DNA from: Bryobacteraceae bacterium
GTDB taxonomy: Bacteria; Acidobacteriota; Terriglobia; Bryobacterales; Bryobacteraceae
NCBI GenBank assembly: GCA_050012195.1
Contig: JBEKHQ010000001.1
Location: 1 to 28,114, forward strand
DNA: 28,114 bases
Reading direction: 5' to 3'
The notes beneath the pieces were generated by a model. It was given only the letters and a program-made list of their open reading frames with translations. It searched no databases and was not told where the DNA came from. Positions 12,457 to 28,114 of the stretch are shown one piece after another; positions within the stretch are counted from its first letter, which is position 1, and each line of letters starts with the position of its first letter. A program made the position numbers and the translations under genes.

Positions 12457-14145
12457 CTATCGCGCCGCGGCGTCAATCCGGCTGCGATCGGCGGCGGCTT
12501 CGAGCAGGATGGTTTGATGCGCGATGCGGGCGAGCGAAGCGCGGTGCGTGATCAGAATCGCGGTCCGACCCTCGGAGACTCGCACCAGCGTGTCGGCGAT
12601 GGCGCGCTCGTTGGCTTCATCGAGCGCCGAAGTAGGTTCGTCGAGAACCAGAACTTTCGGATCGGCCAGCAGCGCGCGCGCCAGAGCGATCCGCTGGCGT
12701 TCCCCCGCCGAGAGCGTTTGCCCGCGTTCGGCGAGGATCGTGTCGTAGCCTTCGGGAAGCGACAGAATGCGCTCGTGAATCGACGCGGCTCCGGCGGCCC
12801 TCCGAATCTCGTCGTCCGTCGCGCCGGGCCGGGCGTAGGCTATGTTCTCGCGCACGCTGGCGCGGAAGAGATAGGGAACTTGATCGACCAGCATCACCGC
12901 GCGGCGCAGGTCCGTCAAAGTGACATTGCGCAAATCGCGTCCGTCGATACGAATGGCGCCCTGTTCCGGGTCATAGAAGCGAACCATGAGATCGGCCAAC
13001 GTCGATTTGCCGACGCCGCTCGGCCCCAGGATGGCGCAGATCGTTCCGGGCGCCACTCGAAAGGACAGATCGTCCAGAACCGCTCCGCCGCCATAACCGA
13101 ACGAAACGCGGTCGAATTCGATTTCACCGCGAACTTCGGCCAACGGCGCGGCGTCAATCCGGTCGGTGATCTCGGCCTGGGTGTCGAACAGTTCCCAGAC
13201 GCGCGCGAGCGAGACTCCGCCGGTCACCAGGTTGCTGTACAGACTCATCATGTTCTGCACCGGCGAGAGCAGGCGCGTATGGTACGCCATGATGGCTACC
13301 AGCGATCCGACGGTGAGCGCGCGGTCGATCACCAGCTTTCCGCCGTATAGAAAAAGCGCCGCGGTGGAGAGCGTCAGGATCGTGCCGGGAACGGCGCCCG
13401 CCAGAAACGCGGTGAGCTGCATGCGCATGAGCGCGTCCAGGAAGTTTTGGTTGTGGCCGCGGAAGCGTTCCACCTCGCGCGTTTCGGCCTGCGCCGCCGT
13501 CACCAGTCGGATCCCCAGCAGCGTCTCGAGCAGGAAACTTCCGATGTCCGAACTGCGTTCCCGAACCGTCCGCACGCGCGCGGCCAGCCGATGCTGGTAG
13601 TGCTGCAACGCCCACACGCTGGCCGGAATCGCCGCCACGCTCACCAGGAAGAGACGCGGGCTGAGGGAAAGCATGATGGCCGCGCTCCCGATCAGAAACA
13701 CGACGTTCGAAAGAATGCTCAACAAGCTATCGGAGGTCACTCGTTGCACCTCGGCGATGTCGTTGTTGATGCGCGAAACCACGTCGCCGAGCTTGCGCTG
13801 CGCCCAGAATCGCGGCGACAGAGTTTGCAAGTGCCGATACAGGGCGAGGCGCATGTCGAAAAGCACTAAGGCCGATACCCGCACGTATTGATAGCTGGAC
13901 AATATGTTGAGCACAAATCCCACCACCGTGACGCCGAGCATCAATCCGCTCACGAGCAACAGCATGCGAAAGTTGTGCTTCAACAGCGCGTCGTCGATCA
14001 GCAACTTCGAGACATACGGTTGCAGCAAGCTGAATCCGGTGGCGGCGATTCCCGCCAGCAACACTAAGACCAGGCGGCGCCAGTACGGGACGACGAATCT
14101 AACCGCGCGGCGGTAGCCGCTCAGAGGAATGCCTCGATCCGGCAT
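12457..14145 (-). CDS. ABC exporter, fused TMD-NBD half transporter (MsbA/ABCB-like)
   Basis: N-terminal TMD; Walker A GPSGVGKST; signature LSAGERQR; Walker B VLVLDEPTSALD; H-switch LITHR. Start ATG 14145 follows AGAGGA. Confidence 0.92.
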   Translation of the reverse strand: MPDRGIPLSGYRRAVRFVVPYWRRLVLVLLAGIAATGFSLLQPYVSKLLIDDALLKHNFRMLLLVSGLMLGVTVVGFVLNILSSYQYVRVSALVLFDMRLALYRHLQTLSPRFWAQRKLGDVVSRINNDIAEVQRVTSDSLLSILSNVVFLIGSAAIMLSLSPRLFLVSVAAIPASVWALQHYQHRLAARVRTVRERSSDIGSFLLETLLGIRLVTAAQAETREVERFRGHNQNFLDALMRMQLTAFLAGAVPGTILTLSTAALFLYGGKLVIDRALTVGSLVAIMAYHTRLLSPVQNMMSLYSNLVTGGVSLARVWELFDTQAEITDRIDAAPLAEVRGEIEFDRVSFGYGGGAVLDDLSFRVAPGTICAILGPSGVGKSTLADLMVRFYDPEQGAIRIDGRDLRNVTLTDLRRAVMLVDQVPYLFRASVRENIAYARPGATDDEIRRAAGAASIHERILSLPEGYDTILAERGQTLSAGERQRIALARALLADPKVLVLDEPTSALDEANERAIADTLVRVSEGRTAILITHRASLARIAHQTILLEAAADRSRIDAAAR

Positions 14146-14198
14146 GGTCCTCTTTTTCATACCACATGTGGCCATTCGCGTCGCTTGCAACTCGACTT

Positions 14199-14226
14199 TT
14201 GTAGGGCTCCCGAATTCGCCTATAAT
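14199..14226 (+). promoter_or_regulatory. Putative sigma70 promoter of the redox/NOS gene cluster
   Basis: TTGTAG (14199-14204), 16-nt spacer, perfect TATAAT (14221-14226); AAGAGG precedes the TTG start at 14256. Confidence 0.5.
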
Positions 14227-14255
14227 GAAACCTCGTATTCAGTAAAGAGGCGGCC

Positions 14256-15929
14256 TTGATTTTCGACGATCTGCGAGCGATTCAAAAGCAATACGGGTAT
14301 CTGCCGGGCGAGCAACTGGAGGCGCTCAGTAAGCGCACCCAACTGCCGCTGTACCGGATTCACGGAGTGGCCGACTTCTTTCCGCATTTCCATTTGACGC
14401 CGCCGCCCAAGGTCAGCTTCAAGGTCTGCACCGACATGTCCTGCCATCTGTGCGGGGCCGACGATCTGCGCACCGGCCTGGAACAGCGCTTCCAGGGCAT
14501 GAACCCGACCGACCTGAAAATCGGCGAGGTGTCGTGCTTGGGCCAGTGCGACGGAGCGCCCGCGGTTTCGATCAACGATCATATCTATCGCGGCGTCACG
14601 GCCGCGCAGGCCGAAGCGCTGGCGCTCACCGCGCTGGGCGGCAGCGAGTTGCCGCACATGCCCGGCGACGCGCGCGTCACCGGCCTGGCTTCCGATCCCT
14701 ATCGCGACTCCGAGCCCTACGGCGCGCTCCGAACCGCGGTCGCGACGCGCGACTGGACCGGGGTGATCGCGCAACTGAAAGCCGCCGGCCTGAGCGGCAT
14801 GGGCGGTGCCGGATTTCCGACCGGCTTCAAGTGGGAAGCGGTGCGCAACGCGCCGGGTCCGGAGAAGTACGTGGTCTGCAACGCCGACGAGAGCGAGCCG
14901 GGCACCATCAAGGACCGCTTCATTCTGCAGAACCTGCCGCACTTGGTGATCGAGGGCATGATTCTGGCCGGCCTGGTGACGGGCGCGCACCAGGGCATTC
15001 TGTATTTGCGGCACGAGTACGAAGGCGCCGAGCACGTTCTGGCTCACGAGATCGAGCGCTGCTACCGGGCGGGCTTGCTGGGAGCGGGCGTGCTGGGCAG
15101 CGATCTGGCCTTCGATCTGGAGTTGTTCATCAGTCCGGGCGGCTATATCTGCGGCGAGGAGAGCGCCTTGATCGAAGCCATCGAGGGGCACCGGGCGGAG
15201 CCGCGCAACAAGCCGCCCTTTCCGGTGACGCACGGCGTGTTCCACAAGCCCACCGCGCTGAACAACGTGGAGACCTTCGCCAACGTTCCGCAGATCCTGA
15301 TCAACGGCGTGGATTGGTACAAGGGGCAAGGGCTGGGCGGGGCGTCAGGATTGAAGTTCGTGGGCATCAGCGGCGACGTGCGCAATCCGGGGATCTTCGA
15401 GATTCCGATGGGCCTGCCGATGTCGGAAGTGATCTTCAACCTGGCGGGCGGCATCGTGGGCGGAAAAAAGCTGAAAGCCTTCGCGCCGTCGGGACCTTCG
15501 TCGGGTTATCTGCCGGCCGCGGCGGCCGACGTGCGTCTGGACTTCAAGTCGCTGGCCGCCATCGGATCGATGCTCGGCTCGGGCGCCATCGTGATCTGCG
15601 CCGAGGGCCGCTGCATGCTGGACATGGCGCTGAACGCGGTGAAATTCTTCCGCAACGAAAGCTGCGGAAAATGCGTGCCCTGCCGCATGGGGACGCAAAA
15701 GCTGACCGACATTATGACCGGCTGGACGCGCGGCCAGGGCAACCGCTCGGACATGGGCATGGTGGAGGATCTGACCGAGACCTTGAAGCTGGCCTCCATC
15801 TGCGGCCTGGGTCAGTTCGCCCACGTGCCGCTGACTTCGGTGCTGGAGCACTTCCGGCCGGAGATCGACGCGCATGTGTACGACCGGCGCTGCCCGGAGG
15901 GCGTGTGCCCGATGCGCGAGCCATTTTGA
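14256..15929 (+). CDS. NuoE-NuoF fusion (diaphorase module: thioredoxin-like [2Fe-2S] + FMN/NADH-binding + [4Fe-4S])
   Basis: NuoE Cys set 'CTDMSC...SCLGQC'. NuoF motifs 'GMGGAGFPTGFKW', 'NADESEPGTIKDR', 'YICGEESAL', 'NNVETFAN', 'ESCGKCVPCRMG' and 'SICGLG'. Not in a complex I operon. Confidence 0.92.
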   Translation: MIFDDLRAIQKQYGYLPGEQLEALSKRTQLPLYRIHGVADFFPHFHLTPPPKVSFKVCTDMSCHLCGADDLRTGLEQRFQGMNPTDLKIGEVSCLGQCDGAPAVSINDHIYRGVTAAQAEALALTALGGSELPHMPGDARVTGLASDPYRDSEPYGALRTAVATRDWTGVIAQLKAAGLSGMGGAGFPTGFKWEAVRNAPGPEKYVVCNADESEPGTIKDRFILQNLPHLVIEGMILAGLVTGAHQGILYLRHEYEGAEHVLAHEIERCYRAGLLGAGVLGSDLAFDLELFISPGGYICGEESALIEAIEGHRAEPRNKPPFPVTHGVFHKPTALNNVETFANVPQILINGVDWYKGQGLGGASGLKFVGISGDVRNPGIFEIPMGLPMSEVIFNLAGGIVGGKKLKAFAPSGPSSGYLPAAAADVRLDFKSLAAIGSMLGSGAIVICAEGRCMLDMALNAVKFFRNESCGKCVPCRMGTQKLTDIMTGWTRGQGNRSDMGMVEDLTETLKLASICGLGQFAHVPLTSVLEHFRPEIDAHVYDRRCPEGVCPMREPF

Positions 15930-15954
15930 AAAACGAAAGCAACTACAGCAATAG

Positions 15955-18114
15955 ATGAGCGACCAAATCCAACTCACCATCGACGGCATGCCGGTATCGG
16001 TTCCGGCCGGGACCACGGTATTCGACGCCGCGCGCATGCACGGCATCGCGATCCCCACGCTGTGCCATCAACAGAACGAGACGCCGGTGGGAGTGTGCCG
16101 GGTGTGCGTGGTGGACGTGGAGAAGGCGCGCGTGCTGCAGGCCTCCTGCGTGCGTCCGGCGGAAAACAACATGGTGGTGTCCACCAACTCGGACCGGGTG
16201 CGGAGGGCGCGGCACACCTTGGTGGAGCTGCTGATGGCGGATCATCCCAGCCCATGCGCGCGGCAGCGGCAATCCAACGATTGCGAGCTGGAAACCATGG
16301 CGCGGCTGGAAGGCATCACCCAGCCTCGCTTCGCGCGCCGACTGTCGCCGCGCGGCCAGGACAACTCGTCGCTGGTGATCGCGGTGGATCACGAGGCCTG
16401 CATACTGTGCGACCGCTGCATCCGGGGCTGCGACGAGATTCGCCAGAACAACGTGCTGGGGCGGCGCGGCAAGGGCTTCGGAGCGGGCGTGGCGTTCGAC
16501 TACAACCTGCCCATGGGAAATTCCTCGTGCGTGTCGTGCGGGGAATGCATGGTGTCCTGCCCCACCGGCGCGCTCACCAACAAGAGCGTGATCAAGACCG
16601 TGCTGCCGGGCGACCCGGTGAAGGTCGAAGAGCTGCAGCAGCTGGCCTATTTCCAAAAAGTCTCGGGCACGTTTCTGGAGCTGAACAAGAACGCGGTGGT
16701 GCGGCGCCGCTTCCGCAAGGGCGAGATCGTGTGCCGGGAGGGCGAATACGGCTCCACCGCGTTCTACATTTTGGAAGGCCAGGCGCACGTGTATCTGGAC
16801 ACGCCGCTGGCGCACGTCAAGACCGGGGGCGGATCCACCGGGTTTTTCAGCAAGCTCACCAGCCGCCTGGTGGGACGCCAGCAGGAACGGCGCCCGGAGG
16901 AAGGCGCGCGCTTCAGCATTCCCATCGACGCCTCGGTCGACCTGCCCTACGACAATCCGGTGGCCACGCTGGGACCGGGCGACCTGTTCGGCGAAATGAC
17001 CTGCATGAGCCTGTATCCGCGCTCGGCCACGGTGCGCGCGGCCACCGATTGCGTGATGTTCGAGATGCTGCGCAACGTGCTGGACATCATCCAGCGCAAC
17101 AAGACGCTCAAGGCGCAGCTGGACGCCAACTATCGCAAGCGGGCGCTGGACGACCATCTGCGCAGCGTTCCGATGTTCGCCACCATGACGCAGGAGTTCA
17201 TCGACCTGCTGCGCGACAAGGTGGAGCTGGTGCGCTACACCAAGGGCGACATCGTCTGCCGGCAGGGCGACATCGCCGACAGCTTCTACCTGGTCCGGCT
17301 GGGCTTCGTGAAGGTATCGGAACCGCATCCGGGGGGCGAGCTGGTGCTGGCCTATCTGGGACGGGGCGGCTACTTCGGCGAAATCGGATTGCTGGGCGAG
17401 GGGCGCCGCACGGCCACCTGCACCGCGCTCGATCACGTGGAGCTGGTGCGCATCCACGCCGACGAGTTCCACCAGATGGTGGACCGGTTCCCGGAGATCC
17501 GGCACAGCCTGGAGCAGCTGGCCTACGAGCGGCAGCAGCAGAACCGGCAGCGGCTGGAAACCGCCACCAGCATGCCCTTGGACGCGTTCCTGACGCAGGG
17601 CCTGATGGAAGCGCAGAGCCTGTTGGTGCTGGATCTGGAGCGCTGCACGCGCTGCGACGCCTGCGTGCGGGCCTGCGCCGACGCGCACGACGGCGTGACG
17701 CGGCTGATCCGCGAGGGCCAGCGCTTCGATCATTATCTGGTGGCCACCTCCTGCCGGCATTGCCGCGATCCGTTGTGCATGGTGGGGTGTCCGGTGGGCT
17801 CCATCCGGCGCCGCAACTCGCTGGAAGTGATTATCGAGAACTGGTGCATCGGCTGCGGCATGTGCGCCAAGAACTGCCCCTACGGCAACATCACCCTGCA
17901 TCCGTTCAACGTCATGGAGGACGATCCGATGAATCCCGGGCACCGCAAGGCGGTGGTGAAGCAGAAGGCGGCTTCCTGCGATTTGTGCACCGAGCACGCC
18001 GAACCGACCTGCGTGTACGCCTGCCCGCACGACGCGGCGCATCGGGTGGAACCCAACGAATTTTTCCGCTGGCTGGGCACCCCTCTGGCCGCCACCGAGG
18101 CCCAGAAACACTAA
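15955..18114 (+). CDS. Multi-Fe-S protein: NuoG/FdhA-like N-terminal [2Fe-2S] + 2x[4Fe-4S], two cNMP-binding domains, C-terminal DmsB-like 4x[4Fe-4S]
   Basis: 'PTLCH...GVCRVC...ASC'; 'CILCDRCIRGC'; 'CVSCGECMVSCP'; cNMP cassettes 'FGEMTC..PRSATV' and 'FGEIGLL..RRTATC'; then 'CTRCDACVRAC', 'CRHCRDPLCMVGCP', 'CIGCGMCAKNCP' and 'CDLC...CVYACP'. Confidence 0.9.
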   Translation: MSDQIQLTIDGMPVSVPAGTTVFDAARMHGIAIPTLCHQQNETPVGVCRVCVVDVEKARVLQASCVRPAENNMVVSTNSDRVRRARHTLVELLMADHPSPCARQRQSNDCELETMARLEGITQPRFARRLSPRGQDNSSLVIAVDHEACILCDRCIRGCDEIRQNNVLGRRGKGFGAGVAFDYNLPMGNSSCVSCGECMVSCPTGALTNKSVIKTVLPGDPVKVEELQQLAYFQKVSGTFLELNKNAVVRRRFRKGEIVCREGEYGSTAFYILEGQAHVYLDTPLAHVKTGGGSTGFFSKLTSRLVGRQQERRPEEGARFSIPIDASVDLPYDNPVATLGPGDLFGEMTCMSLYPRSATVRAATDCVMFEMLRNVLDIIQRNKTLKAQLDANYRKRALDDHLRSVPMFATMTQEFIDLLRDKVELVRYTKGDIVCRQGDIADSFYLVRLGFVKVSEPHPGGELVLAYLGRGGYFGEIGLLGEGRRTATCTALDHVELVRIHADEFHQMVDRFPEIRHSLEQLAYERQQQNRQRLETATSMPLDAFLTQGLMEAQSLLVLDLERCTRCDACVRACADAHDGVTRLIREGQRFDHYLVATSCRHCRDPLCMVGCPVGSIRRRNSLEVIIENWCIGCGMCAKNCPYGNITLHPFNVMEDDPMNPGHRKAVVKQKAASCDLCTEHAEPTCVYACPHDAAHRVEPNEFFRWLGTPLAATEAQKH

Positions 18115-18119
18115 CGCCC

Positions 18120-18998
18120 ATGCGGATCGATCACACCCACCGTCCCTGGTTCGTCGTCACGCTGATCGCGGCCGCGGTTGCGACGGTCGTGTACATCTTA
18201 TATGCGGTCAACACGCCCACCGGCCCGCGCGGCGGCAGCGCGCTGGGTCTCACGTTCGGCATCCTGGGCTACGGCCTGATGCTGTACGCCGGATTGATCG
18301 GCGCGCGCAAGAAAGTGCCCACCTGGCGCATCGGACGCGGGCAAACCTGGATGCGCGGGCACATCTGGCTGGGCACGCTGAGCCTGCTGATCATTCTGTT
18401 TCACGCCGGCTTCGCGTTTCGAGGGCCGTTGACGACGGCTCTGATGATTCTGTTTTTCCTGGTGATCGCCAGCGGCATCGCGGGCGCGGCCCTGCAACAC
18501 TTCGTGCCCGGCGTCATGACCCAGCGCGTGCCCATGGAGACCATCTACGAGGAGATCCCGCACGTGCGCGTGCAACTGTGCGAGGAGGCCGACAAGCTGG
18601 TGGCCTCCATCTGCGGCCCCATGGACGCCGACGACACCGAGGAGCCCGCCGCGGCCGTCACCACGCTGGTGGAAATCGAACAAGGCGACAAAGCGCGCTT
18701 CCGCGAGATCTATCTGCAGCAGGTCCGCCCCTATCTGGCCGATCCGGAAGCGAGGCAAGCCGACCTGGCCGATCCGCTGCGCTCCACGCAGATTTTCGAA
18801 TCCATGCGCCGGCTGCTGGGCGGGCAGTTGCACGGCGTGCTGGACGATCTGGAAAACATCTGCGAGGAGGAACATCAGTTGAGCCGGCAGATTCGCATCT
18901 ATCGCTGGCTGCACGGCTGGCTGCTGATCCACGTTCCGTTGTCCATCGTATTGCTGGTGCTGGGAGGGGTGCACGCCGTCATGGCGCTGCGCTATTAA
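18120..18998 (+). CDS. Ferric-reductase-like transmembrane protein (putative diheme cytochrome b), 292 aa
   Basis: C-terminal part of the spurious 16062-18998 ORF; the real start is ATG 18120, 5 nt after the upstream stop. About 5 TM helices with two His pairs 14 residues apart: HIWLGTLSLLIILFH and HVPLSIVLLVLGGVH. Confidence 0.8.
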   Translation: MRIDHTHRPWFVVTLIAAAVATVVYILYAVNTPTGPRGGSALGLTFGILGYGLMLYAGLIGARKKVPTWRIGRGQTWMRGHIWLGTLSLLIILFHAGFAFRGPLTTALMILFFLVIASGIAGAALQHFVPGVMTQRVPMETIYEEIPHVRVQLCEEADKLVASICGPMDADDTEEPAAAVTTLVEIEQGDKARFREIYLQQVRPYLADPEARQADLADPLRSTQIFESMRRLLGGQLHGVLDDLENICEEEHQLSRQIRIYRWLHGWLLIHVPLSIVLLVLGGVHAVMALRY

Positions 18999-19002
18999 TC
19001 CC

Positions 19003-20316
19003 ATGGCCGGACGAACCCGCACCACCAAGAAACTGGCGCAGCGCATCAATCTGAATTACTTCAAGACCCTGCGCGGCATCCCGCGCTGGCGGCGCATCCT
19101 GTCCGGCGTTTTGGTCGCGCTCGGCGTCGCGTGGCTGGGCTGGTACGCGCTGGCGGGCACTCCCAAGCCCTATAACGCCGGACCGGTTTCGCACACCCAC
19201 ACCCTGATCGGAGGCAAGTGCGAAACCTGTCACGCGACCCAGGCCGGCTTCGAGCACAGCGCCACCGATAAAGCCTGCCTGACTTGTCACGACGGTCCCA
19301 TTCATCACGCCGAACAGACTTTCTCGCCGGCCTGCGCCAGCTGCCACGTCGAGCATAAGGGCGCGTTTCGGCTGGCCGCCACCACGGACGAAGCCTGCAC
19401 GCAATGCCACGCCGATCTGGCGGCCAAGGATAAGAACGCGCCGCCGCGTTTTGTTTCAAACATCCGCGGCTTCGACGGCACGCATCCCCAGTTCGCGGTG
19501 CTGCGCTCGGGCCGCATCGATCCGGGCACCATCAAGTTCGGCCACCAGGTGCATTTGAAGAAGGATTTACGAGGGCCGCACGGGCCGGTGCAACTGCAAT
19601 GCGCCGATTGTCATCGCCCGCAAGGCTTGAACCAACCCTGGCCGTTCAGTATCGCGCAGATCGCTCCGGTATCGTTGTCGGCCGCCCTGCCCGACCGATC
19701 CTACATGGAGCCGATCAACTACGAAAAGCATTGCGCCACCTGTCACACATTGCAGTTCGACCGGCGCTTCTCCGAAAGCGTGCCGCATAAGGAGCCCAAG
19801 GTGGTGTACGATTTCGTGGTCGAGAAACTGACCGGCTACATCGCGGAGCATCCCACCCAGATTCCGCTGGTGGACGAGCCGGACAAGCGGCTGCCCAGCC
19901 GTCCGCCGCAGCCGCCGGCGCGCAACGCTCGCGAATGGGTGGCCGAGCGGCTGACCGATTCCGAGTTCCTGTTGTGGCGCAAGGCCTGCAAGGAATGCCA
20001 TCTGGAAACCTTTCCGAACGGCAACGACGCGCTGCCGGTGGTAGCCAAGGCGGCCATCACGGCGCGCTGGCTGCCGCATTCCAACTTCGATCACGAAGCG
20101 CACCAGATGGTGGCCTGCGCTGCTTGTCACGCCAAGGCGCCCACCAGCAAGGAGACCTCCGACGTCCTGATCCCCGGCGTCCAGGTCTGCCGCGACTGCC
20201 ATCATGCCGGTAAGGAAGCCGCCGAAGCCCGCTGCTTCGAGTGTCACAACTATCACGACTGGACCAAGGAAAAACCCCCCGTCGGCAAGTTCGCCGTTTC
20301 CCAGCTCGGCCAATAA
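19003..20316 (+). CDS. Membrane-anchored decaheme cytochrome c
   Basis: Ten CXXCH motifs counted (CETCH, CLTCH, CASCH, CTQCH, CADCH, CATCH, CKECH, CAACH, CRDCH, CFECH). Basic N-terminus followed by one hydrophobic helix. Confidence 0.92.
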   Translation: MAGRTRTTKKLAQRINLNYFKTLRGIPRWRRILSGVLVALGVAWLGWYALAGTPKPYNAGPVSHTHTLIGGKCETCHATQAGFEHSATDKACLTCHDGPIHHAEQTFSPACASCHVEHKGAFRLAATTDEACTQCHADLAAKDKNAPPRFVSNIRGFDGTHPQFAVLRSGRIDPGTIKFGHQVHLKKDLRGPHGPVQLQCADCHRPQGLNQPWPFSIAQIAPVSLSAALPDRSYMEPINYEKHCATCHTLQFDRRFSESVPHKEPKVVYDFVVEKLTGYIAEHPTQIPLVDEPDKRLPSRPPQPPARNAREWVAERLTDSEFLLWRKACKECHLETFPNGNDALPVVAKAAITARWLPHSNFDHEAHQMVACAACHAKAPTSKETSDVLIPGVQVCRDCHHAGKEAAEARCFECHNYHDWTKEKPPVGKFAVSQLGQ

Positions 20317-20349
20317 GCGGCTCGTGGTGGAGTAAACTGCAAGGTACGC

Positions 20350-23300
20350 TTGCCCCCAGAAACATCCGTTCCGCAAACGATGAATGAGTTATTGGCGCTG
20401 CTCCGTTCGGTCCCTTTCCTGGCTCCATTGACGGATTCCGAACTCGAGCATATCGCTCAACAATCCAGCAGGGAGACCGCGGCGCCCGGCCGCGTAATTG
20501 TGCGCGAGGGCGAAATCGGCGAATGCATGTACGTGATCGTGCGCGGCGCGGTACAGATCCTCACAACTTCTTTCGACGGATCGGACGTCGTGCTGGCGCG
20601 CCTGGAAGCCGGTCAATGGTTCGGCGAACAAGCGCTTCAGCCGGGCGGAACGGGCCGGCGCAACGCCAGCGTCCGGGCGATCGAGGAGTGCAGCCTGGTG
20701 GTGCTGTCGCGCGACCTTCTGCGGGATGTGCTCGCGCAGGACTCCCAGTTGCTGGTCGAGTTGCGCAAGAGAGGAGCAGAGCAGCGAGCGCTGCGCAACA
20801 ACCGCCTTCGGGAGGGAGTGTTTGCGACCCTGGGCTTGGAGTCAGGCTCCCTCGAATATCGCGTAGAGAAATATCCCGCGGGCGAGGCGGTCTTTCATCA
20901 GGGAGACCGCGGAGACCGGCTGTATCTGATCCTGAGCGGGCGCGCGCATGTGGAGCGAACCGAGGGCGGCGAGCGCAGGATTTTGGCCGAGCTGCTGCCC
21001 GGGCAATTTTTCGGCGAGCTCGCAATATTGCGCGACACGCCGCGCAACGCGACCGTGGCGGCAGCCGACGAGCTCGAAGTGGTGAGCCTGGACGGGGAAT
21101 GGTTCCGGCGCGCGCACGATCAAAATCCGGCGCTGCGGTCGTTGATGGAGTCGCTCGAGAGCATGTACCTGCTCCCGCATCGCGGCCTGCTCACGCTGCA
21201 GACGGGACAGTTGGACGGCAAGCCGGCGCTGACGGCGGTGCACAATCTTCCGGACGGCAGGCGCGTCATGAGCACGCGGCTTACCGGCGCGCCCGCGTTC
21301 ACCGCGCAAGTGCTGGACGCGGAGAAATCCGGCGCCGCGTCCGTGATCTACGAGAAGCCGGAGCACGGAATCTACCGCGAGCTGCAGGTCGGCGGCGGCA
21401 AACTGACGGGCCTGGAATCGCAGGGCGAGTGGACCGGCTTGGGCGACATGTTCGGCCGGTTGCTCGACGGCGCGCCGGTGGAGGAATGGCAACTCGCGCT
21501 GTTCCGCGAGCGCGGCGATTTCCGGGTACAGGAAGTTCAGCCGCTCTATGAAGAGAAAGAGATCATCTGCACCTGCACTCACACCAGTTGCGGCAAGATC
21601 ATGCAGGCCATTCGCGACAACTGCACCACCGTGGAACAGGTGGCCAAGCGCACCAACGCGACGCGGGTCTGCGGCGGCTGCATGCCCTTGGTGCGCGAAC
21701 TGCTGGGACAGTCGGATTGGACGGCGGCGCACGTGATCGAGCGCGTCCCGCTGGCGGAGGACGTGCGATCTTTTCGCATCCGCCCGATCGCGGGCGAGTG
21801 CCGGGATTGGCTGCCGGGACAGCACCTGGTGCTCCAGGCGCGCATCGATAATCGTTGGGTGCAGCGCGCCTACACTCTCTCGTGCGCTCCCGGCGGGAGC
21901 TGGTACGAGATCACCGTGAAACGCGAGCCGCAAGGCGTGTTCTCGCGCTGGTTGTTCGATCGCATGCCGCAAGATGCAATGCTGCGCGTGTCGGAACCGG
22001 GTGGCGAGTACCATCTGCCCGCCGATCAGACCGCGGACGTCGTGTGCCTGGTGGGCGGTATCGGCGTAACTCCGGCGCTCGCGATGGCGCGGACTTTGAG
22101 CGCGCGGCCCAGGCCCTTCCGGCTGCATGTGCATTATTGCGCCTCCCAGCCGGACGACCTGGTGGGCCGCGACGAACTGGCGGCGCTGTCACAAAAGAGC
22201 GAACGCATTTCGGTCGAATTCCGCGCCACGCGACTGGAAGGCCGCTTCGGGCTGGAGCAGGTTCGCGAAGTCGCTAATCGTTTTCCGGGCGCGCTCTATT
22301 TCCTGTGCGGAAGCCCGCCCTATATGGATGCCGTGGGCGGGTATCTGCGGGAATGCGGAGTGCCGGAGGAGCGCATTCGCGTCGAGGTTTTTATCGCCGC
22401 GGGCGCCAAGGTGGCTGAGCAGGCGGCCCCCAAACATTGCCCGGTGGATCACGCGGCGCGCGCTTTGGAAACTCCTGCCGCGCCGCTCGAACAGGCGCGC
22501 GCGATGCTGGGCGATTGTTATCGCGAGGCCAACGCTCCGCCGTCGGTTTTCGAGGCGCGCTGGCGCAAGGTAGAGGACGAATTTCAGCTCGACCAGACCT
22601 ATAGCCAGACCTTCGAAGAGCTGGTGTACGCGTCGCGCGTCGCCTGGAGGAACAGCGTCAAATGCATCGGCCGATTGTTCTGGCAAGGGTTGGCGGTCCG
22701 CGATTTCCGCCATGTTCAAACCGAGGACGAGATGTTCGAGGCGATTTTCTCGCACATCGAAACGGCCATGAACGGCGGGAATCTGCGGCCGCTGATCACG
22801 GTCTTCCCGCCCGCGGACAAGGACGGCCACAAGCCGCGCATCTGGAATCCGCAGATTTTTCGCTACGCGGGCTACCGGATGCCGGAGGGCCCTGTACTGG
22901 GCGATCCCGCGAATGTCGAGCTCACCGAAGCCGCGATCCGTTTGGGCTGGACGCCTCCCGCCGCGCGCGGCCGTTTCGACCTGCTGCCGGTGATCCTGGA
23001 AGCGGGAGGCCGTAAGCCGCAGTGGCGCGAGATTCCCAAGCACTTGGTGGTCGAAGTGCCGATTCTGCATCCGCGCTTCGAAGGCTTCCAAAATCTGGGA
23101 TTGAAGTGGTACGCGCTGCGGCTGGTGGCGGGCATGCTGCTCGACGCCGGCGGAGTGCAATACTCGGCCGCGCCCTTTAACGGCTGGAGCATGGGCACGG
23201 AAATCGGCGCCCGGATCTTCAGCGACGTCAATCGCTACAACCAGTTGCCCGAGGTCGCAAAAATCCTGGGACTTGATACCGAAAGCGATCGAACCTTGTG

Positions 23301-23568
23301 GCGCGACCGGGCGCTGGTGGAGCTCAACGTCGCTGTTCTGCACTCCTTCGACAAAGCAGGGATCAAGATCATGGATCACCACGCGGCGAGCGAAGCCTTC
23401 ATGAAGTTCGACGATCAGGAGAGCCGCGCCGGCCGACCCGTACACGCGCGCTGGAGCTGGATCGTGCCGCCGATTTCAGGCTCCGCGACACCCGTATTTC
23501 ATCAGGAATGGACGGATGTCGAGATCAAACCGAACTATGTTGCCCTGCCCGAGCCGTGGAAGGCTTGA
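20350..23568 (+). CDS. nos: Nitric oxide synthase fusion: 2x cNMP-binding, BFD-like [2Fe-2S], FAD/NAD(P)H reductase (FNR-like), NOS oxygenase
   Basis: cNMP cassettes 'FGEQAL..RRNASV' and 'FGELAIL..PRNATV'. BFD 'ICTC...VCGGC'. Reductase 'RAYTLS', 'GVFSRWL', 'GGIGVTP' and 'LCGSPPYM'. NOSoxy 'AWRNSVKCIGR' (heme Cys), 'RIWNPQIFRYAGY', 'PFNGWSMGTEIG', 'IMDHH' and 'WSWIVPPISGSATPVFHQ'. Start is TTG 20350 or ATG 20380. Confidence 0.92.
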   Translation: MPPETSVPQTMNELLALLRSVPFLAPLTDSELEHIAQQSSRETAAPGRVIVREGEIGECMYVIVRGAVQILTTSFDGSDVVLARLEAGQWFGEQALQPGGTGRRNASVRAIEECSLVVLSRDLLRDVLAQDSQLLVELRKRGAEQRALRNNRLREGVFATLGLESGSLEYRVEKYPAGEAVFHQGDRGDRLYLILSGRAHVERTEGGERRILAELLPGQFFGELAILRDTPRNATVAAADELEVVSLDGEWFRRAHDQNPALRSLMESLESMYLLPHRGLLTLQTGQLDGKPALTAVHNLPDGRRVMSTRLTGAPAFTAQVLDAEKSGAASVIYEKPEHGIYRELQVGGGKLTGLESQGEWTGLGDMFGRLLDGAPVEEWQLALFRERGDFRVQEVQPLYEEKEIICTCTHTSCGKIMQAIRDNCTTVEQVAKRTNATRVCGGCMPLVRELLGQSDWTAAHVIERVPLAEDVRSFRIRPIAGECRDWLPGQHLVLQARIDNRWVQRAYTLSCAPGGSWYEITVKREPQGVFSRWLFDRMPQDAMLRVSEPGGEYHLPADQTADVVCLVGGIGVTPALAMARTLSARPRPFRLHVHYCASQPDDLVGRDELAALSQKSERISVEFRATRLEGRFGLEQVREVANRFPGALYFLCGSPPYMDAVGGYLRECGVPEERIRVEVFIAAGAKVAEQAAPKHCPVDHAARALETPAAPLEQARAMLGDCYREANAPPSVFEARWRKVEDEFQLDQTYSQTFEELVYASRVAWRNSVKCIGRLFWQGLAVRDFRHVQTEDEMFEAIFSHIETAMNGGNLRPLITVFPPADKDGHKPRIWNPQIFRYAGYRMPEGPVLGDPANVELTEAAIRLGWTPPAARGRFDLLPVILEAGGRKPQWREIPKHLVVEVPILHPRFEGFQNLGLKWYALRLVAGMLLDAGGVQYSAAPFNGWSMGTEIGARIFSDVNRYNQLPEVAKILGLDTESDRTLWRDRALVELNVAVLHSFDKAGIKIMDHHAASEAFMKFDDQESRAGRPVHARWSWIVPPISGSATPVFHQEWTDVEIKPNYVALPEPWKA

Positions 23569-23647
23569 ATGACACTCTTCCTGTAACGTTCACATTGCAT
23601 GCACTTTGTCAACTGTTAGCCCATTACTTACTGTACCTAAAGACACC

Positions 23648-23675
23648 TTGAATCTCGTCCAAAGTGACCTATAAT
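23648..23675 (+). promoter_or_regulatory. Putative sigma70 promoter upstream of the large surface-protein gene
   Basis: TTGAAT (23648-23653), 16-nt spacer, TATAAT (23670-23675) in an AT-rich intergenic region. Confidence 0.55.
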
Positions 23676-23930
23676 GAAATACCCTGCTGAAGAACTTGCA
23701 GAACCTTGGTACCATCGGGAGGTTACCTGCGCACCCACAAGTGGACGCGGGAGGAAGTCGTAAATCATTGAATTTGCTTTGGCTGAACCCATCCACACGC
23801 TGCGGCGTTTCGAAGTTTCCGCGCCCAATCAATAGGCCCTTGGCGGCAGTACGCCTACATTTAATTTGGGTAGGTGCTCCAGTGACGCCCCTAACCCAAT
23901 GGTTTAACTTTGGGGAAGGGAAATTTAGAG

Positions 23931-26900
23931 ATGCTTAAGCCTTTACATGGCTTATTGTTAGCGGGTTTGCTGGCTGCGCCGGTGCTGTTTGGCCAGGATC
24001 CTCTATGCACCGGCAGCCAAAGCTCGAGTGGCGAAACTTTCGAAAGCAACGGGGGCGCCGGTACGTTTTCCGGAACCGTTACCACTTACTGCGGCCCCCT
24101 GACGTCGGCCACACCCAGCGCGCCCTGGATCAGCATCACCTCGGCGACCGGGACCTTCTCCATCCAGTTCTCGGTTTCTCCGAATACAACGGGATCGAGC
24201 CGTTCGGGCAGTATTACGGCGAAGTTCACAAACCCCGGGATCGAATCTTTCACCTTCTCGGTGACGCAGTATGCAAAGCTGACCTTTACTAGTTCTTCAC
24301 TACCCGTCGGCGCCGTCGGATATCCTTATTCCGCTCAGTTGCAGGTCTCGGGAGGAAGCGATGACTCGCGAAGCTTCTCCATCATTTCAGGCTCGCTTCC
24401 GCCCGGTTTATCCTTATCGGGTTCAACGATCGGCGGAACGCCGACCGGATCGGGAACGACGGCTTCTTTTACCGCGCAAGTCACCGATATCGACCCCAGC
24501 TCCGGCAATCCGTTTTCCGCAACTCAGGGCTTCGAAATAACGATCAATCCCCGATTTACAGCCTCCACAACGTCGCTGCCAGGCGCAACCGTTGGAGTAA
24601 GTTACTCGGCGTCAGTCTCGGCCAGCGGAGGATTTGCGCCGTATGGCTGGTCCCTGATTTCAGGAGCATTGCCCTCGGGATTATCGCTGAATTCCGGTAC
24701 CGGAGCGATCAGTGGAATTCCCGGCGCCAACTCTCAAGGGTCGTATCCGATCACAATCCAGGTGTCCGATCTGCGCGGCGAGACTTTGAACGTACCGCTC
24801 ACGCTGAATGTCGCTGGAACTCCGATTCCCTTAACGATTACGACCTCTACCTTGCCGTCGGCGACTGCGGGAGTGCCTTATAGCGCGTCGCTCACGGCCA
24901 ACGGCGGGACGACGCCCTATGCCTGGTCGGCAGCGGGTCTTCCATCCTGGTTGAGCGTTTCGCCTGCCGGCCAGGTCTCCGGCACACCGCCGGCGGGATC
25001 GGCGGGAAGCTTTCCCTTCACCGCAAAAGTGCTGGACGCCATCGGCCATTCCGCCTCCGCCCCCCTGTCGTTGCAGGTGAACCTTCCTCCCCCTGGTCCT
25101 TTGAGCATTGTCACTACTTCGCCGCTCCCTGATGGAAGAGAAGGCAGCGTCTACAATTTCGGCTTCGTTGCAACCGGCGGAAAAGCCCCATACGAGTGGT
25201 CGGCCACCGGCCTTCCGGCATTCTTGAACCTGGCGCCGAGCGGCAGTCTCACCGGGATACCGTCGGTGGGTTCCGCGGGTCCCTACAGCTTTACTGCGAC
25301 GGTTAGCGACGCCTTGGGAAACAAAGTCAGCGGAACATTCGGCCTGAAAGTGGACTCTTTGACGTCGCTAGGGATCACGACATCCTTGTTGCCGCCCGCC
25401 ACGGTAGGTGTGCCCTATAGCGTTGCGTTCGCGGCCACCGGCGGGACCTTGCCCTATGCGTGGTCGGCTTCCGGCTTACCGTCATGGTTGAGCCTTTCCC
25501 AAGCCGGCCAGCTCTCCGGCACGCCCCCGGCGGGAGCCCCGGTCTCGCTTAGCTTCACGGTGAGCGTCGGCGACTCTGCGGGAAATAAGGCGAGCGGGAT
25601 GTTCAGCCTGACGGTGAACCCGCTGAAATCCACCGTGCTGGTGACCATCATCGTTGCGTCGCCCCTGCCGCAAGCCACCGAAAATCAGCCTTACACAGTT
25701 ACATTCAGCGCCAGCGGCGGCACCGCTCCGTACACTTGGACGGGAGTGGGAGTGCCCTATTGGGCGAATCTCTCGCCGGCGGGCGTGCTCAGTGGAACTC
25801 CGCCGTTCGGCTCCGCGGGCGCCACGCTACTCACGGTCACCGCCACCGATTCGGCGAACAACAGCCAAAGCACGCAAGTCACGCTGGTGGTATTGTCGGC
25901 GAACGGCCCCACCATTACGACGACGTCTCCTCTGCCGAACGCGGCCGCCGGCGCCAATTATCAAATTACGTTGAGCGCCACGGGAGGAACACCGCCCTAC
26001 CAATGGTCGGGTTCGGGCATTCCAGCCGGACTCACGTTGACATCGAATGGACAACTGAGCGGCACTCCCACTACTCAGGGCGTCAATACCGTGACCGCGC
26101 AAGCCACCGACGCGGACCATAACGTGGCGTTCGCGGCGCTGAACTTACAGGTTGCGCCTTCCGCGATCACGATCATCACGCCTACCCCGCTGCCCGCCGG
26201 CGAGGTGAGTGTTTCATATTCGACCGTGTTTCAATCCAGCGGCGGAACTCGGCCACAGTCGTGGAGCCTTGTTTCCGGAACAATACCGCCCGGCACGACT
26301 CTCGATTCGAGCGGAGTTCTGAGCGGCACTCCAACACAGACCGGAGTCTTCGACTTCACCGTAAACGTCTCCGACGAGGGCGTGGCCGACGTCGAGAAGA
26401 CCAAGGCCGTAAAGGCGAACGTCGCCGGTGTTGCCGGCGCCAGCGCCCCGTTCGAAATCACGGTAACGCCTTACGTAACGCCGGATCTAATTCTTTCTTG
26501 CGGCAGCCTGTCGTTCGCGGCGCCCAGCCAAGGGACTGCGTCCCTGCAAACGTGTTCCGTCATCTCGACCGTTTACAACTCGATCCCATTCTCGGTGAGC
26601 GCGAATGTGCCATGGCTGTCGGTGTCGACCGGCGGAATCACGCCGGGCAATCTCGAAATAGGCGCGAATCCCGCCGGTCTCTCGGACGGGGCTCACGCCG
26701 GCACGATCACCGTGTCGTCCCCGGGCGTGACCTCCAAGACTATCCAAGTATCGTTCACCACCAACGCCGAGCTCGAGGCTTCCGGAATCCTGCAAGTTTC
26801 GCCCTCCACTCTGACGCTCTCCAGCCCTGGGTCTCCGGCACTCAACCAGACTCTCTTCCTTCAGAATCTAGGGCAAGGCAATCTGCCTTTCACGGTTTCG

Positions 26901-28114
26901 ACCGACGTTCCCTGGCTGGTAGTAAGCCCACAGTCTGGAACGCTCAGCGGGGAGGGGGCCCTCACGCTACAGGCTACGATTTTGACGCCGAGCCTCGCGC
27001 CGGGCGCATACCTGGGACACATCGAGATCGATTCGCCCTACGGCAGCTTCCAGATCCCGGCCAGCCTGCTGATTTCAGGACAAACGTCAAATTTGGGATC
27101 GCGGCCGAGAATGATACTGAGCCGGGACGGCATCCTGCTGCGTGCACGGCAGGGGAATGGGGTGTCCGGACCGGTCCCGACAACCTTCGAGATTACAGGC
27201 TCCACTAGCACCACGATCAACTATACGGTCAGCCAGGTAGGCGGAGAAGGCTGGCTGACGCTGGTAAGCGACCCGCAAGGCACCGCCTCGAGCACGGTTA
27301 CGGGAACGGTGGCTTTCAAGGCTACGAGCGCTCAATTGCCGAAGGGCGCGTATTATGCGATCTTGCGCGTCACTGCGGCCGAGCCCTTCGACTCGCCTTT
27401 GGATTTCCTGGTGGTCCTGGATGTAGAAGACGCCTCCACGCCGGCCACGCCGGATTCCTACCCCAGCGGCTTGCTATTTGCGGCTGCGGCCGGAACCAAT
27501 CCGCCCACTCAGATGGTGGCCGTCTACACCAGCAACGACAAGCCCATATCGTACCAAGTGGCGATCGAGACGGAGAGCGGCGGAAATTGGCTTTCGGCCA
27601 CGCCGCTGGCCGGCTTCCTCGCTACCCTAACGCCGGCGCAGCTTACCGTGTCGGTGAATACTTCCAATTTGACGCCCGGAATCTACCGGGGCGGGGTCAA
27701 TGTCTCGATCAGCAACCTGGAAGTGCGCACGGTGAACGTCACCCTGATCGTTCCGGACTTGGGTTCTTCCTCGAGCTCGTCGTCGCATGCGGTCTCGAAC
27801 CCGGCTTCGAGCGCCTCCGCCACTCCGGCGGCTGCGTCAACCTGTACGCCCGCCAATCTGGTGTTAACGGAAACAGGTTTGCCCGGCAGTTTCTCGACTC
27901 CCGCCGCGTGGCCCAGTTACATCGCCGTCCAGCTTGCAGACGATTGCGGCAATCCGGTCTTCGGCGGCTACGTGGTAGCCAATTTCTCGAACGGCGATCC
28001 ATCGCTCTCGCTGGCTGCGAACACTGCGACCACGGCGCTGTATTCCGCCACCTGGACACCAGTAAACCCCGTGGCGCAACTCACGATCACGATGCAAGCC
28101 AGCGCTTCGGGACT
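23931..28114 (+). CDS. Large secreted surface protein with BACON-like and eight putative-Ig (He_PIG-like) domains; truncated by window end (>1390 aa)
   Basis: Not in the ORF track because there is no stop codon in the window. Manual translation: signal peptide MLKPLHGLLLAGLLAAPVLFGQ; one BACON-like unit (PWISIT...SRSGSIT); eight 'T.LP.A..G.PYS....A.GG..PY.WS...LP..L.L...G.LSGTP' repeats; four 'WL.VS'-type BACON-like units; then 'CTPANLV...PAAWPSYIAVQLADDCGNPV...ANFSNGDP'. Confidence 0.9.
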   Translation, partial: MLKPLHGLLLAGLLAAPVLFGQDPLCTGSQSSSGETFESNGGAGTFSGTVTTYCGPLTSATPSAPWISITSATGTFSIQFSVSPNTTGSSRSGSITAKFTNPGIESFTFSVTQYAKLTFTSSSLPVGAVGYPYSAQLQVSGGSDDSRSFSIISGSLPPGLSLSGSTIGGTPTGSGTTASFTAQVTDIDPSSGNPFSATQGFEITINPRFTASTTSLPGATVGVSYSASVSASGGFAPYGWSLISGALPSGLSLNSGTGAISGIPGANSQGSYPITIQVSDLRGETLNVPLTLNVAGTPIPLTITTSTLPSATAGVPYSASLTANGGTTPYAWSAAGLPSWLSVSPAGQVSGTPPAGSAGSFPFTAKVLDAIGHSASAPLSLQVNLPPPGPLSIVTTSPLPDGREGSVYNFGFVATGGKAPYEWSATGLPAFLNLAPSGSLTGIPSVGSAGPYSFTATVSDALGNKVSGTFGLKVDSLTSLGITTSLLPPATVGVPYSVAFAATGGTLPYAWSASGLPSWLSLSQAGQLSGTPPAGAPVSLSFTVSVGDSAGNKASGMFSLTVNPLKSTVLVTIIVASPLPQATENQPYTVTFSASGGTAPYTWTGVGVPYWANLSPAGVLSGTPPFGSAGATLLTVTATDSANNSQSTQVTLVVLSANGPTITTTSPLPNAAAGANYQITLSATGGTPPYQWSGSGIPAGLTLTSNGQLSGTPTTQGVNTVTAQATDADHNVAFAALNLQVAPSAITIITPTPLPAGEVSVSYSTVFQSSGGTRPQSWSLVSGTIPPGTTLDSSGVLSGTPTQTGVFDFTVNVSDEGVADVEKTKAVKANVAGVAGASAPFEITVTPYVTPDLILSCGSLSFAAPSQGTASLQTCSVISTVYNSIPFSVSANVPWLSVSTGGITPGNLEIGANPAGLSDGAHAGTITVSSPGVTSKTIQVSFTTNAELEASGILQVSPSTLTLSSPGSPALNQTLFLQNLGQGNLPFTVSTDVPWLVVSPQSGTLSGEGALTLQATILTPSLAPGAYLGHIEIDSPYGSFQIPASLLISGQTSNLGSRPRMILSRDGILLRARQGNGVSGPVPTTFEITGSTSTTINYTVSQVGGEGWLTLVSDPQGTASSTVTGTVAFKATSAQLPKGAYYAILRVTAAEPFDSPLDFLVVLDVEDASTPATPDSYPSGLLFAAAAGTNPPTQMVAVYTSNDKPISYQVAIETESGGNWLSATPLAGFLATLTPAQLTVSVNTSNLTPGIYRGGVNVSISNLEVRTVNVTLIVPDLGSSSSSSSHAVSNPASSASATPAAASTCTPANLVLTETGLPGSFSTPAAWPSYIAVQLADDCGNPVFGGYVVANFSNGDPSLSLAANTATTALYSATWTPVNPVAQLTITMQASASG

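Follow-up and report, generated by a model that had tools for sequence, protein, structure and literature searches.

The stretch of DNA analysed here (hereafter the window) comprises the first 28,114 nucleotides of contig JBEKHQ010000001.1 of a Bryobacteraceae bacterium and carries a compact run of genes centred on a 719-amino-acid (aa) protein that joins iron-sulphur (Fe-S) cluster motifs to two cyclic nucleotide monophosphate (cNMP) binding domains. This protein, labelled P0001, is encoded by an open reading frame (ORF) at positions 15955-18114 that translates without stops, and is treated below as a candidate Fe-S/cNMP/cNMP/polyferredoxin connector subunit in which a HoxU-like block is fused to a PtdE-like unit. 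Its gene is preceded by that of a NuoE-NuoF fusion (14256-15929) and followed by genes for a membrane protein with five predicted transmembrane (TM) helices (18120-18998), a decahaem cytochrome c (19003-20316) and a nitric oxide synthase (NOS) fusion (20350-23568). All five lie on the + strand, and the gaps between successive genes are 25, 5, 4 and 33 nt. The first four are considered here as a putative cassette for the transfer of electrons from NADH to the periplasm.

P0001 is made up of four parts. The N-terminal block (N-block; aa 1-217, positions 15955-16605) has motifs for one [2Fe-2S] and two [4Fe-4S] clusters; cNMP domain 1 (aa 228-395, 16636-17139) has an intact phosphate-binding cassette and an insert of about 50 residues that is modelled with low confidence; cNMP domain 2 (aa 396-545, 17140-17589) has an intact cassette as well, and a long C-helix (aa 513-537) that runs into the ferredoxin block; and the C-terminal block (C-block; aa 550-712, 17602-18090) has four cysteine motifs for four [4Fe-4S] clusters of the HycB/HydN/NrfC type. 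In Pfam, residues 3-79 were assigned to Fer2_4 (67 bits), cNMP_binding (PF00027) was matched over several stretches with 131.3 bits against a cut-off of 27.5 bits, and the C-terminal part matched 4Fe-4S dicluster families, with further 4Fe-4S motifs found. In NCBIfam, residues 5-217 align with the N-termini of group A6 [FeFe] hydrogenase, HoxU (172 bits) and NuoG, and residues 557-702 with HydN, AegA and DmsB. According to both databases, the type of module found in the N-block is common to HoxU, NuoG, NAD-dependent formate dehydrogenases and group A [FeFe] hydrogenases. Neither molybdopterin (Mo/W-bisPGD) nor H-cluster/hydrogenase catalytic domains were found in P0001 with Pfam or NCBIfam, and the similarity to the Mo/W and [FeFe] hydrogenase families ends at about residue 217, with Protein Data Bank (PDB) matches ending near residue 220-230. 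The closest solved relatives of the C-block are HycB4 (E 3e-16) and HycB3 (E 3.4e-16) of the hydrogen-dependent CO2 reductase (7qv7), followed by HycB of formate hydrogenlyase (7z0s; E 2.5e-13) and NrfC (E 1.8e-8); a PDB search returned no solved structure with the full architecture. A first-pass annotation, made from the sequence alone, had described a NuoG/FdhA/HydA-type Fe-S module followed by two cNMP domains and a four-cluster ferredoxin, with no Mo/W-bisPGD domain or H-cluster, and this layout is confirmed by Pfam, NCBIfam and the predicted fold.

The AlphaFold2 model of P0001, built on 55 relatives, has a mean predicted local distance difference test score (pLDDT) of 82.6 and a predicted template modelling score (pTM) of 0.71, with low confidence only at the insert of cNMP domain 1 (residues 290-315), the 540-555 linker and the C-terminal tail. 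Model residues 4-247 superpose on the N-terminus of the formate dehydrogenase alpha subunit (7xqw_A) with Z 27.4 and a root-mean-square deviation (rmsd) of 1.5 A over 206 residues; the match of the N-block to HoxU (5xf9_F) has Z 23.6, and the values for the N-termini of FdhA, HydA, NuoG/complex I and HoxU range over Z 23-27.

Conservation of ligands and motifs was counted in a 55-sequence alignment of relatives. The ligands of the N-block [2Fe-2S] cluster (C37, C48, C51 and C65) are kept in 54-55 of the 55 sequences, the eight cysteines of its two [4Fe-4S] motifs (C149/152/155/159 and C192/195/198/202) in all of them, and the sixteen cysteines of the C-block in 49-55. The resemblance to NuoG and HydA proposed at first pass holds for the fold, the [2Fe-2S] site and the two [4Fe-4S] sites, but the ligand alignment does not extend it to the His(Cys)3 (N5/FS4C-type) site. 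The latter (16243-16284, + strand) is degenerate: H97, C101 and C110 can be aligned, the fourth ligand is absent, as the CxxC partner cysteine is missing, and C101 and C110 are retained in just 24-25 of the 55 relatives. The NuoG His-cluster region (NADH-G_4Fe-4S_3, residues 86-125) scores 21.3 bits in Pfam, under the 27-bit cut-off. The His(Cys)3 cluster has probably been lost from P0001, and because of the degenerate site the expected cofactor complement would be one [2Fe-2S] and six [4Fe-4S] clusters.

Both cNMP domains carry the residues that contact the cyclic phosphate. The cassette of domain 1 reads G346-E347...R356-S357-A358, with the arginine present in 49 of 55 relatives, and that of domain 2 reads G475-E476...R485-T486-A487, with the arginine in 44 of 55; the Gly-Glu plus Arg-Ser/Thr-Ala signature is clearly conserved across the family in both. 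The pair aligns as a single unit with the tandem CNB-A/B domains of PKG and PKA regulatory subunits (E 1e-24 to 2e-25), tandems in which nucleotide binding reorients both CNB domains. At least four class III cyclases are encoded in the host genome. In 15 of the 80 related loci from Acidobacteriota described below, a gene for a class III adenylate/guanylate cyclase lies no more than 8 kb from the cassette, mostly convergent and right after the decahaem gene (e.g. L021:12723-13256); the enzyme in one of these 15 loci is a CHASE2-cyclase (L018:4248-5819).

It is also conceivable, if rather improbable, that the cNMP-like domains sense no cyclic nucleotide, and serve as a scaffold, in dimerisation or in the perception of another signal, such as redox state via cysteines in the cassettes. 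Haem, Fe-S clusters or 2-oxoglutarate are the ligands of other CRP/FNR-type domains. Such a role would suit the occurrence inside the phosphate-binding cassettes of Cys350 (window 17002-17004; in 51 of 55 relatives) and Cys489 (17419-17421; in 43 of 55), which is unusual for cNMP domains and may make the sensor redox sensitive. It would likewise suit the variable segment of domain 1, which ranges from 21 to 123 residues among relatives, and the absence of an adjacent cyclase from the window. In P0001 this insert spans residues ~285-335 (window ~16807-16959), lies in the beta-roll and includes a short helix rich in basic residues. Against a role unrelated to nucleotides stand the conservation of the phosphate-contacting signature in both domains, a Pfam score nearly five times the cut-off and the cyclases adjacent to the cassette in 15 of 80 loci.

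The gene directly upstream of P0001, across the 25-nt gap, encodes a 557-aa fusion of NuoE and NuoF. It has the domains 2Fe-2S_thioredx, Complex1_51K, SLBB and NADH_4Fe-4S in Pfam and matches nuoF_fam in NCBIfam with 439 bits. It also retains the motifs for flavin mononucleotide (FMN) and NADH binding, GGAGFPTG and NADESEPGT, and the cysteines C470/473/476/516, as would be expected of an input flavoprotein with [2Fe-2S] and [4Fe-4S] sites. The 292-aa protein encoded downstream has five predicted TM helices, two W-x3-H-x13-H motifs (H81/H95 and H271/H285), an SGxxG motif and a soluble insert of ~130 aa. Its two histidine pairs, located on predicted TM3 and TM5, are invariant among 74 orthologues, and more distant relatives likewise show no variation in the motifs. 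From these motifs it is presumed to bind haem b and to act as a di-haem electron gate of the type of PtdF and the PCC4 inner-membrane protein. One of its relatives gives a faint Pfam match to Ferric_reduct (PF01794). Cytochrome b561, considered as a fold match for the 5-TM protein, was discarded, its Z of 8.1 being within noise. The fourth gene encodes a PtdG-like cytochrome c of 437 aa with ten CXXCH motifs and one N-terminal TM anchor helix.

In order to describe the conservation of the cassette, 80 species-level loci of Acidobacteriota were considered, in which the Fe-S protein is 67-91% identical (81 loci with L001 included). In all 80 loci the NuoEF gene is followed directly by that of the Fe-S/cNMP protein and then by that of the membrane protein; a NuoE-NuoF gene was found in 80 of the 81, and 76 of the 81 have the decahaem gene next, several of the remainder being cut by contig ends. 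Occurrence in the phylum is patchy: the full-length fused form was found in four of 301 genomes searched (G000 included) and the cNMP-ferredoxin part alone in about 13 more. Near-identical copies of the stretch occur in many metagenomes from peat and bog. When contigs from RNA libraries were aligned to positions 14000-23900, those of three peat libraries covered 14280-20167, that is, NuoEF through the decahaem gene, and single contigs spanned each of the junctions (15523-16115, 17793-18657 and 18969-19351); the NOS region was almost bare of them. A scan of 14256-23568 returned no promoter-like or terminator-like sites on the + strand, and was uninformative, as site counts were not above those of shuffled controls.

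The wider family reveals which part of the system is constant. An exhaustive profile-free search with P0001 recovered 1585 cluster representatives at E <= 1e-30, some of which share only part of the architecture, and the four parts of P0001 were mapped onto the best 150 relatives. Among these, cNMP-cNMP-ferredoxin is the constant unit and the N-terminus varies, the heads being a HoxU-like block, NuoE-NuoF-HoxU, two FHA domains, extensions of no known type, or none. In P0188, NuoE-NuoF-HoxU-cNMP2-ferredoxin are found in one chain of 1483 aa, a fusion which ties the NADH module to the Fe-S/cNMP protein; its gene adjoins planctomycete PSCyt2/PSD1/DUF1501 genes. P0148 has two FHA domains at the head of the cNMP-cNMP-ferredoxin unit, and P0200 has a NUDIX domain at its C-terminus. 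The neighbourhoods vary in a similar manner: the HoxU-like block is encoded by its own gene between those of NuoEF and the cNMP-ferredoxin protein in L098, an FNR-like reductase and a small ferredoxin take the place of NuoEF and HoxU in L100, no input gene is adjacent in L101, and the FHA-headed form is followed by a similar protein of ~294 aa in L102. Most of these variant loci also include a gene for a membrane protein of ~300 aa and one for a multihaem cytochrome; L090 differs in that what follows is a single LVIVD protein of 1615 aa. In the ESM Atlas, further clusters with FAD/Pyr_redox_2 heads occur in Pseudomonadota, while Planctomycetota and Verrucomicrobiota have large clusters. As judged from these comparisons, the unit that is invariant across phyla is cNMP-cNMP-ferredoxin plus membrane protein plus multihaem cytochrome, and the N-terminal Fe-S block is one input module among several that can stand in for one another.

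Spacing within the family alignment follows the same division. The distance from the last cysteine of the N-block to the core of cNMP domain 1 varies between 59 and 118 residues (standard deviation 13.2), as if this linker served to tether a donor that can be exchanged. Between the second cassette and the first cysteine of the C-block, most sequences have 71-75 residues (standard deviation 4.9). A fixed spacing of this kind is what would result if the C-helix of domain 2 transmitted a signal to the ferredoxin block, by analogy with other cNMP-regulated proteins. Because the N-block can be separate, replaced or absent and only the spacing between cNMP domain 2 and the C-block is fixed, the cNMP pair belongs with the C-terminal ferredoxin.

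The first-pass annotation had placed the cNMP pair in the slot vacated by a lost catalytic domain and proposed that ligand binding governs how far apart the two Fe-S blocks of the one chain lie, as an allosteric switch. This hinge model is about as improbable as a tandem blind to nucleotides. It draws on the position of the pair, which starts ~10 residues past the last cluster motif of the N-block, where the catalytic domains of FdhA and HydA begin, on the intact motifs and PKA/PKG-like tandem arrangement, and on the predicted models, among which the inter-domain arrangement is not reproducible, as would be compatible with mobility. The independent predicted model of a full-length relative compares with P0001 over residues 3-719 with a TM-score of 0.41 and an rmsd of 16 A, and those of two relatives consisting of the cNMP-ferredoxin part only with TM-scores of 0.57-0.61 and rmsd of 5-6 A; these being comparisons of prediction with prediction, they are a weak proxy for domain arrangement. 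They suggest that the N-block is loosely placed, and are compatible with its being mobile. When the N-block (aa 1-226) and the C-block (aa 546-712) were docked as two chains, the score was 0.01, classed as 'no answer', a result that weighs neither way. The pair stays with the ferredoxin where the N-block is separate, replaced or missing, and the length of the linker between the N-block and cNMP domain 1 is not conserved; both argue against the hinge. The idea of a vacated catalytic slot is not borne out, since cNMP-cNMP-ferredoxin is always kept together and the N-block is not. The allosteric switch fares better in part: intact cassettes, a PKG/PKA-like tandem and the four or more cyclases of the host fit with it, but the N-block is not obligately covalent and its linker varies. 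Across the family, what has been conserved is not a hinge linking two Fe-S blocks in one chain.

Parts of the system resemble several that have been described. In a literature survey on NuoF/NuoG together with cNMP domains in Acidobacteria, no paper on the architecture of P0001 was found, and the core was touched only by a preprint on the ptd genes and a paper on PCC4. The preprint names a ptdABCDEFG cluster encoding the cNMP-binding 4Fe-4S protein PtdE along with PtdF and PtdG, of unknown function (bioRxiv 10.1101/2023.11.21.568154). PCC4 was described by He et al. (2017) as having an Fe-S gene upstream of that of a 5-TM protein (PMC5566968). In the same work, the inner-membrane proteins of PCC3 and PCC4 were reported to have the same His-pair signature and were likened to the di-haem domains of ferric reductases and NOX, and PCC4 was found in Fe(II) oxidisers, for which an inward Fe(II)-oxidation route to quinone was proposed (PMC5566968). 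Neither publication treats the cNMP domains or the form fused to NuoEF/HoxU. The core of the window appears to match PtdE-F-G and subgroup II of PCC4, on the basis of architecture, motifs and the intermediate relatives L100 and L101: in each case a cNMP 4Fe-4S gene is followed by one for a 5-TM protein of ~300 aa (two W-x3-H-x13-H motifs, SGxxG) and one for a decahaem cytochrome c. However, genes for a porin, a penta-/tetrahaem cytochrome and a FAD/NAD(P) oxidoreductase (PtdA-D) were not found in the 28-kb window, the input consists of NuoE-NuoF and the fused HoxU-like block instead of the FAD/NAD(P)-binding PtdC, and the host is a peat acidobacterium and not a marine proteobacterium, a member of Nitrospirales or a planctomycete. 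The architecture is real and widespread; its core had been named earlier, and the window carries the acidobacterial variant fused to NuoEF/HoxU, in this case beside a NOS with cNMP domains.

The input side resembles HoxEFU, FdsGBA, HydABC and Nqo1-2-3, in which a NuoE/NuoF-type flavoprotein is likewise followed by a [2Fe-2S] plus 2x[4Fe-4S] block with the HoxU/NuoG-N/HydA-N fold. HoxEFU is the diaphorase of NAD-reducing [NiFe] hydrogenases. In the window, by contrast, flavoprotein and block are followed by neither a hydrogenase nor a Mo/W or quinone module, the His(Cys)3 site is degenerate, and the block of P0001 runs on into cNMP domains and polyferredoxin. The C-block shares with HycB, HydN, NrfC and DmsB the four cysteine motifs for four [4Fe-4S] clusters, but lacks a Tat signal and is fused behind two cNMP domains, and its presumed partner is a 5-TM bis-His protein in place of an NrfD/DmsC-type or catalytic subunit. 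With PKA regulatory subunits and PKG the protein has in common two consecutive cNMP domains, both with a phosphate-binding cassette, whereas its output would be a polyferredoxin and not a kinase, cysteines occur in both cassettes, and domain 1 has a 50-aa insert. Lastly, the route suggested by the cassette is reminiscent of NOX/FRE enzymes, in which electrons pass from a cytoplasmic nicotinamide nucleotide to flavin, two b haems (HX13H pairs on TM3 and TM5) and an outside acceptor. It differs in the use of a NuoF-type (FMN) flavin module, a seven-cluster Fe-S chain and a decahaem cytochrome as acceptor, and the membrane protein of the window has neither a Ferric_reduct match in Pfam nor a specific structural match.

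Taken together, these data lead us to favour, over its rivals and with somewhat better than even confidence, a reading in which P0001 is the cytoplasmic Fe-S connector, and probably the regulatory subunit, of a four-subunit, quinone-independent electron conduit; the connector role as such is quite likely. In the proposed scheme, NADH would be oxidised at the FMN of the NuoE-NuoF fusion, and electrons would enter P0001 via the [2Fe-2S] and two [4Fe-4S] clusters of the HoxU-like block, pass to the four [4Fe-4S] clusters of the HycB-like block, and from there reach the two b haems of the 5-TM protein and the ten haems of the periplasmic decahaem cytochrome. P0001 fuses a HoxU-type input adaptor to a PtdE-type cNMP-cNMP-ferredoxin protein, units which are separate elsewhere. 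The cNMP tandem, joined to the ferredoxin by a helix and linker of fixed length, would most likely make the hand-over of electrons dependent on cyclic AMP or cyclic GMP (cAMP/cGMP), the control point perhaps being where the ferredoxin block meets either the donor module or the membrane acceptor. Direction of electron flow, haem b binding, identity of the ligand and any gating are all steps that we infer.

Outward flow would be electrogenic and dissipative, by analogy with NOX, and tight post-translational control would therefore be sensible; the cNMP tandem is the obvious candidate to exert it. Nucleotide control of electron transfer is plausible on the strength of the conserved motifs, at close to an even chance. 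The narrower proposal, that binding of cAMP/cGMP to the tandem directly gates a respiratory-type wire, at the transfer from one Fe-S chain to another or from the ferredoxin block to the haems in the membrane, and so switches an outlet from NADH to the periplasm on and off post-translationally, is possible but doubtful. We know of no bioenergetic precedent for direct gating of an electron wire by a second messenger.

Several observations weigh against the conduit. No common domain arrangement emerges from the predicted full-length models, so that the wire may not be continuous from N-block to C-block. Function is described as unknown in both of the papers found to name the core. The 5-TM protein has no Pfam family, Ferric_reduct included, and the fold search with its model returned generic helical bundles only (best Z 11). 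The 28-kb window holds no cyclase. The RNA libraries may contain DNA, and their assembled contigs, some with a few differences, speak for presence and continuity across junctions and not for strand or level. The FHA-headed variants are without an obvious electron donor and would fit signalling no less than a wire; a function in signalling alone is a further rival to the conduit. Inward flow, from a periplasmic or extracellular donor such as Fe(II) via the decahaem cytochrome, P0001 and NuoEF to NAD+, is very unlikely: NuoEF-type modules are, as textbooks have it, reversible in hydrogenases and formate dehydrogenases, and PCC4 was modelled as an inward route in Fe(II) oxidisers (PMC5566968), yet NAD+ reduction from high-potential donors is strongly uphill with no ion-pumping or bifurcating module in the cassette, inward movement of electrons would oppose the membrane potential, and the host belongs, judging by annotation names, to a lineage of peat heterotrophs.

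Should the outward conduit exist, soil and peat Acidobacteria, and with them many planctomycetes, Verrucomicrobia and proteobacteria, would be able to pass electrons from NADH to multihaem cytochromes in the periplasm independently of quinone. The central subunit of this route would sense a cyclic nucleotide, tying a second messenger directly to electron flow and not to transcription, and the cassette would amount to a compact electron conduit that is genetically encoded and can be switched by a ligand. The family has many members, so that one biochemical study would annotate thousands of genes.

The NOS fusion downstream of the decahaem gene (1072 aa, 20350-23568, + strand) consists, in Pfam, of cNMP-cNMP-BFD[2Fe-2S]-FNR (a FAD/NAD reductase)-NOS oxygenase, and its cNMP pair is ~30% identical to that of P0001. 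It was considered as a member of the system and rejected, as it is adjacent in only two of the 81 loci (the window and L014) and is barely covered by RNA-library contigs; it is a lineage-specific neighbour outside the conserved system. Further downstream, an open-ended ORF of more than 1400 aa (23910-28112) has eight He_PIG Ig-like repeats along with BACON-type domains; its product looks secreted and has no evident link to the redox cassette.

The region upstream of NuoEF differs between the window and its relatives. A gene for a cytochrome c554-like multihaem protein is found there in divergent orientation in 65 of the 80 acidobacterial loci (e.g. L010:4899-6179, - strand), followed in 20 loci by an HbpS-like gene. 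In the window this position is held by an ABC transporter, and the cytochrome c554-like orthologue of the host genome (86% identical) sits on another contig (C89:4184-5467, G000). A cytochrome with LVIVD repeats is encoded nearby in 21 of the 80 loci and also beside the cassettes of distant relatives, and very large LVIVD-repeat proteins with cytochrome c motifs occur as well (L015:15338-17986, L090:9239-14086, L099:1578-5294 and L101:3241-6819); such proteins may represent the periplasmic end of the chain. One contig of RNA run X18 joins position 21163, in the NOS gene just past the second cNMP domain, to position 15200 in NuoEF, with 10 unmatched letters between, and is most likely an assembly chimera.

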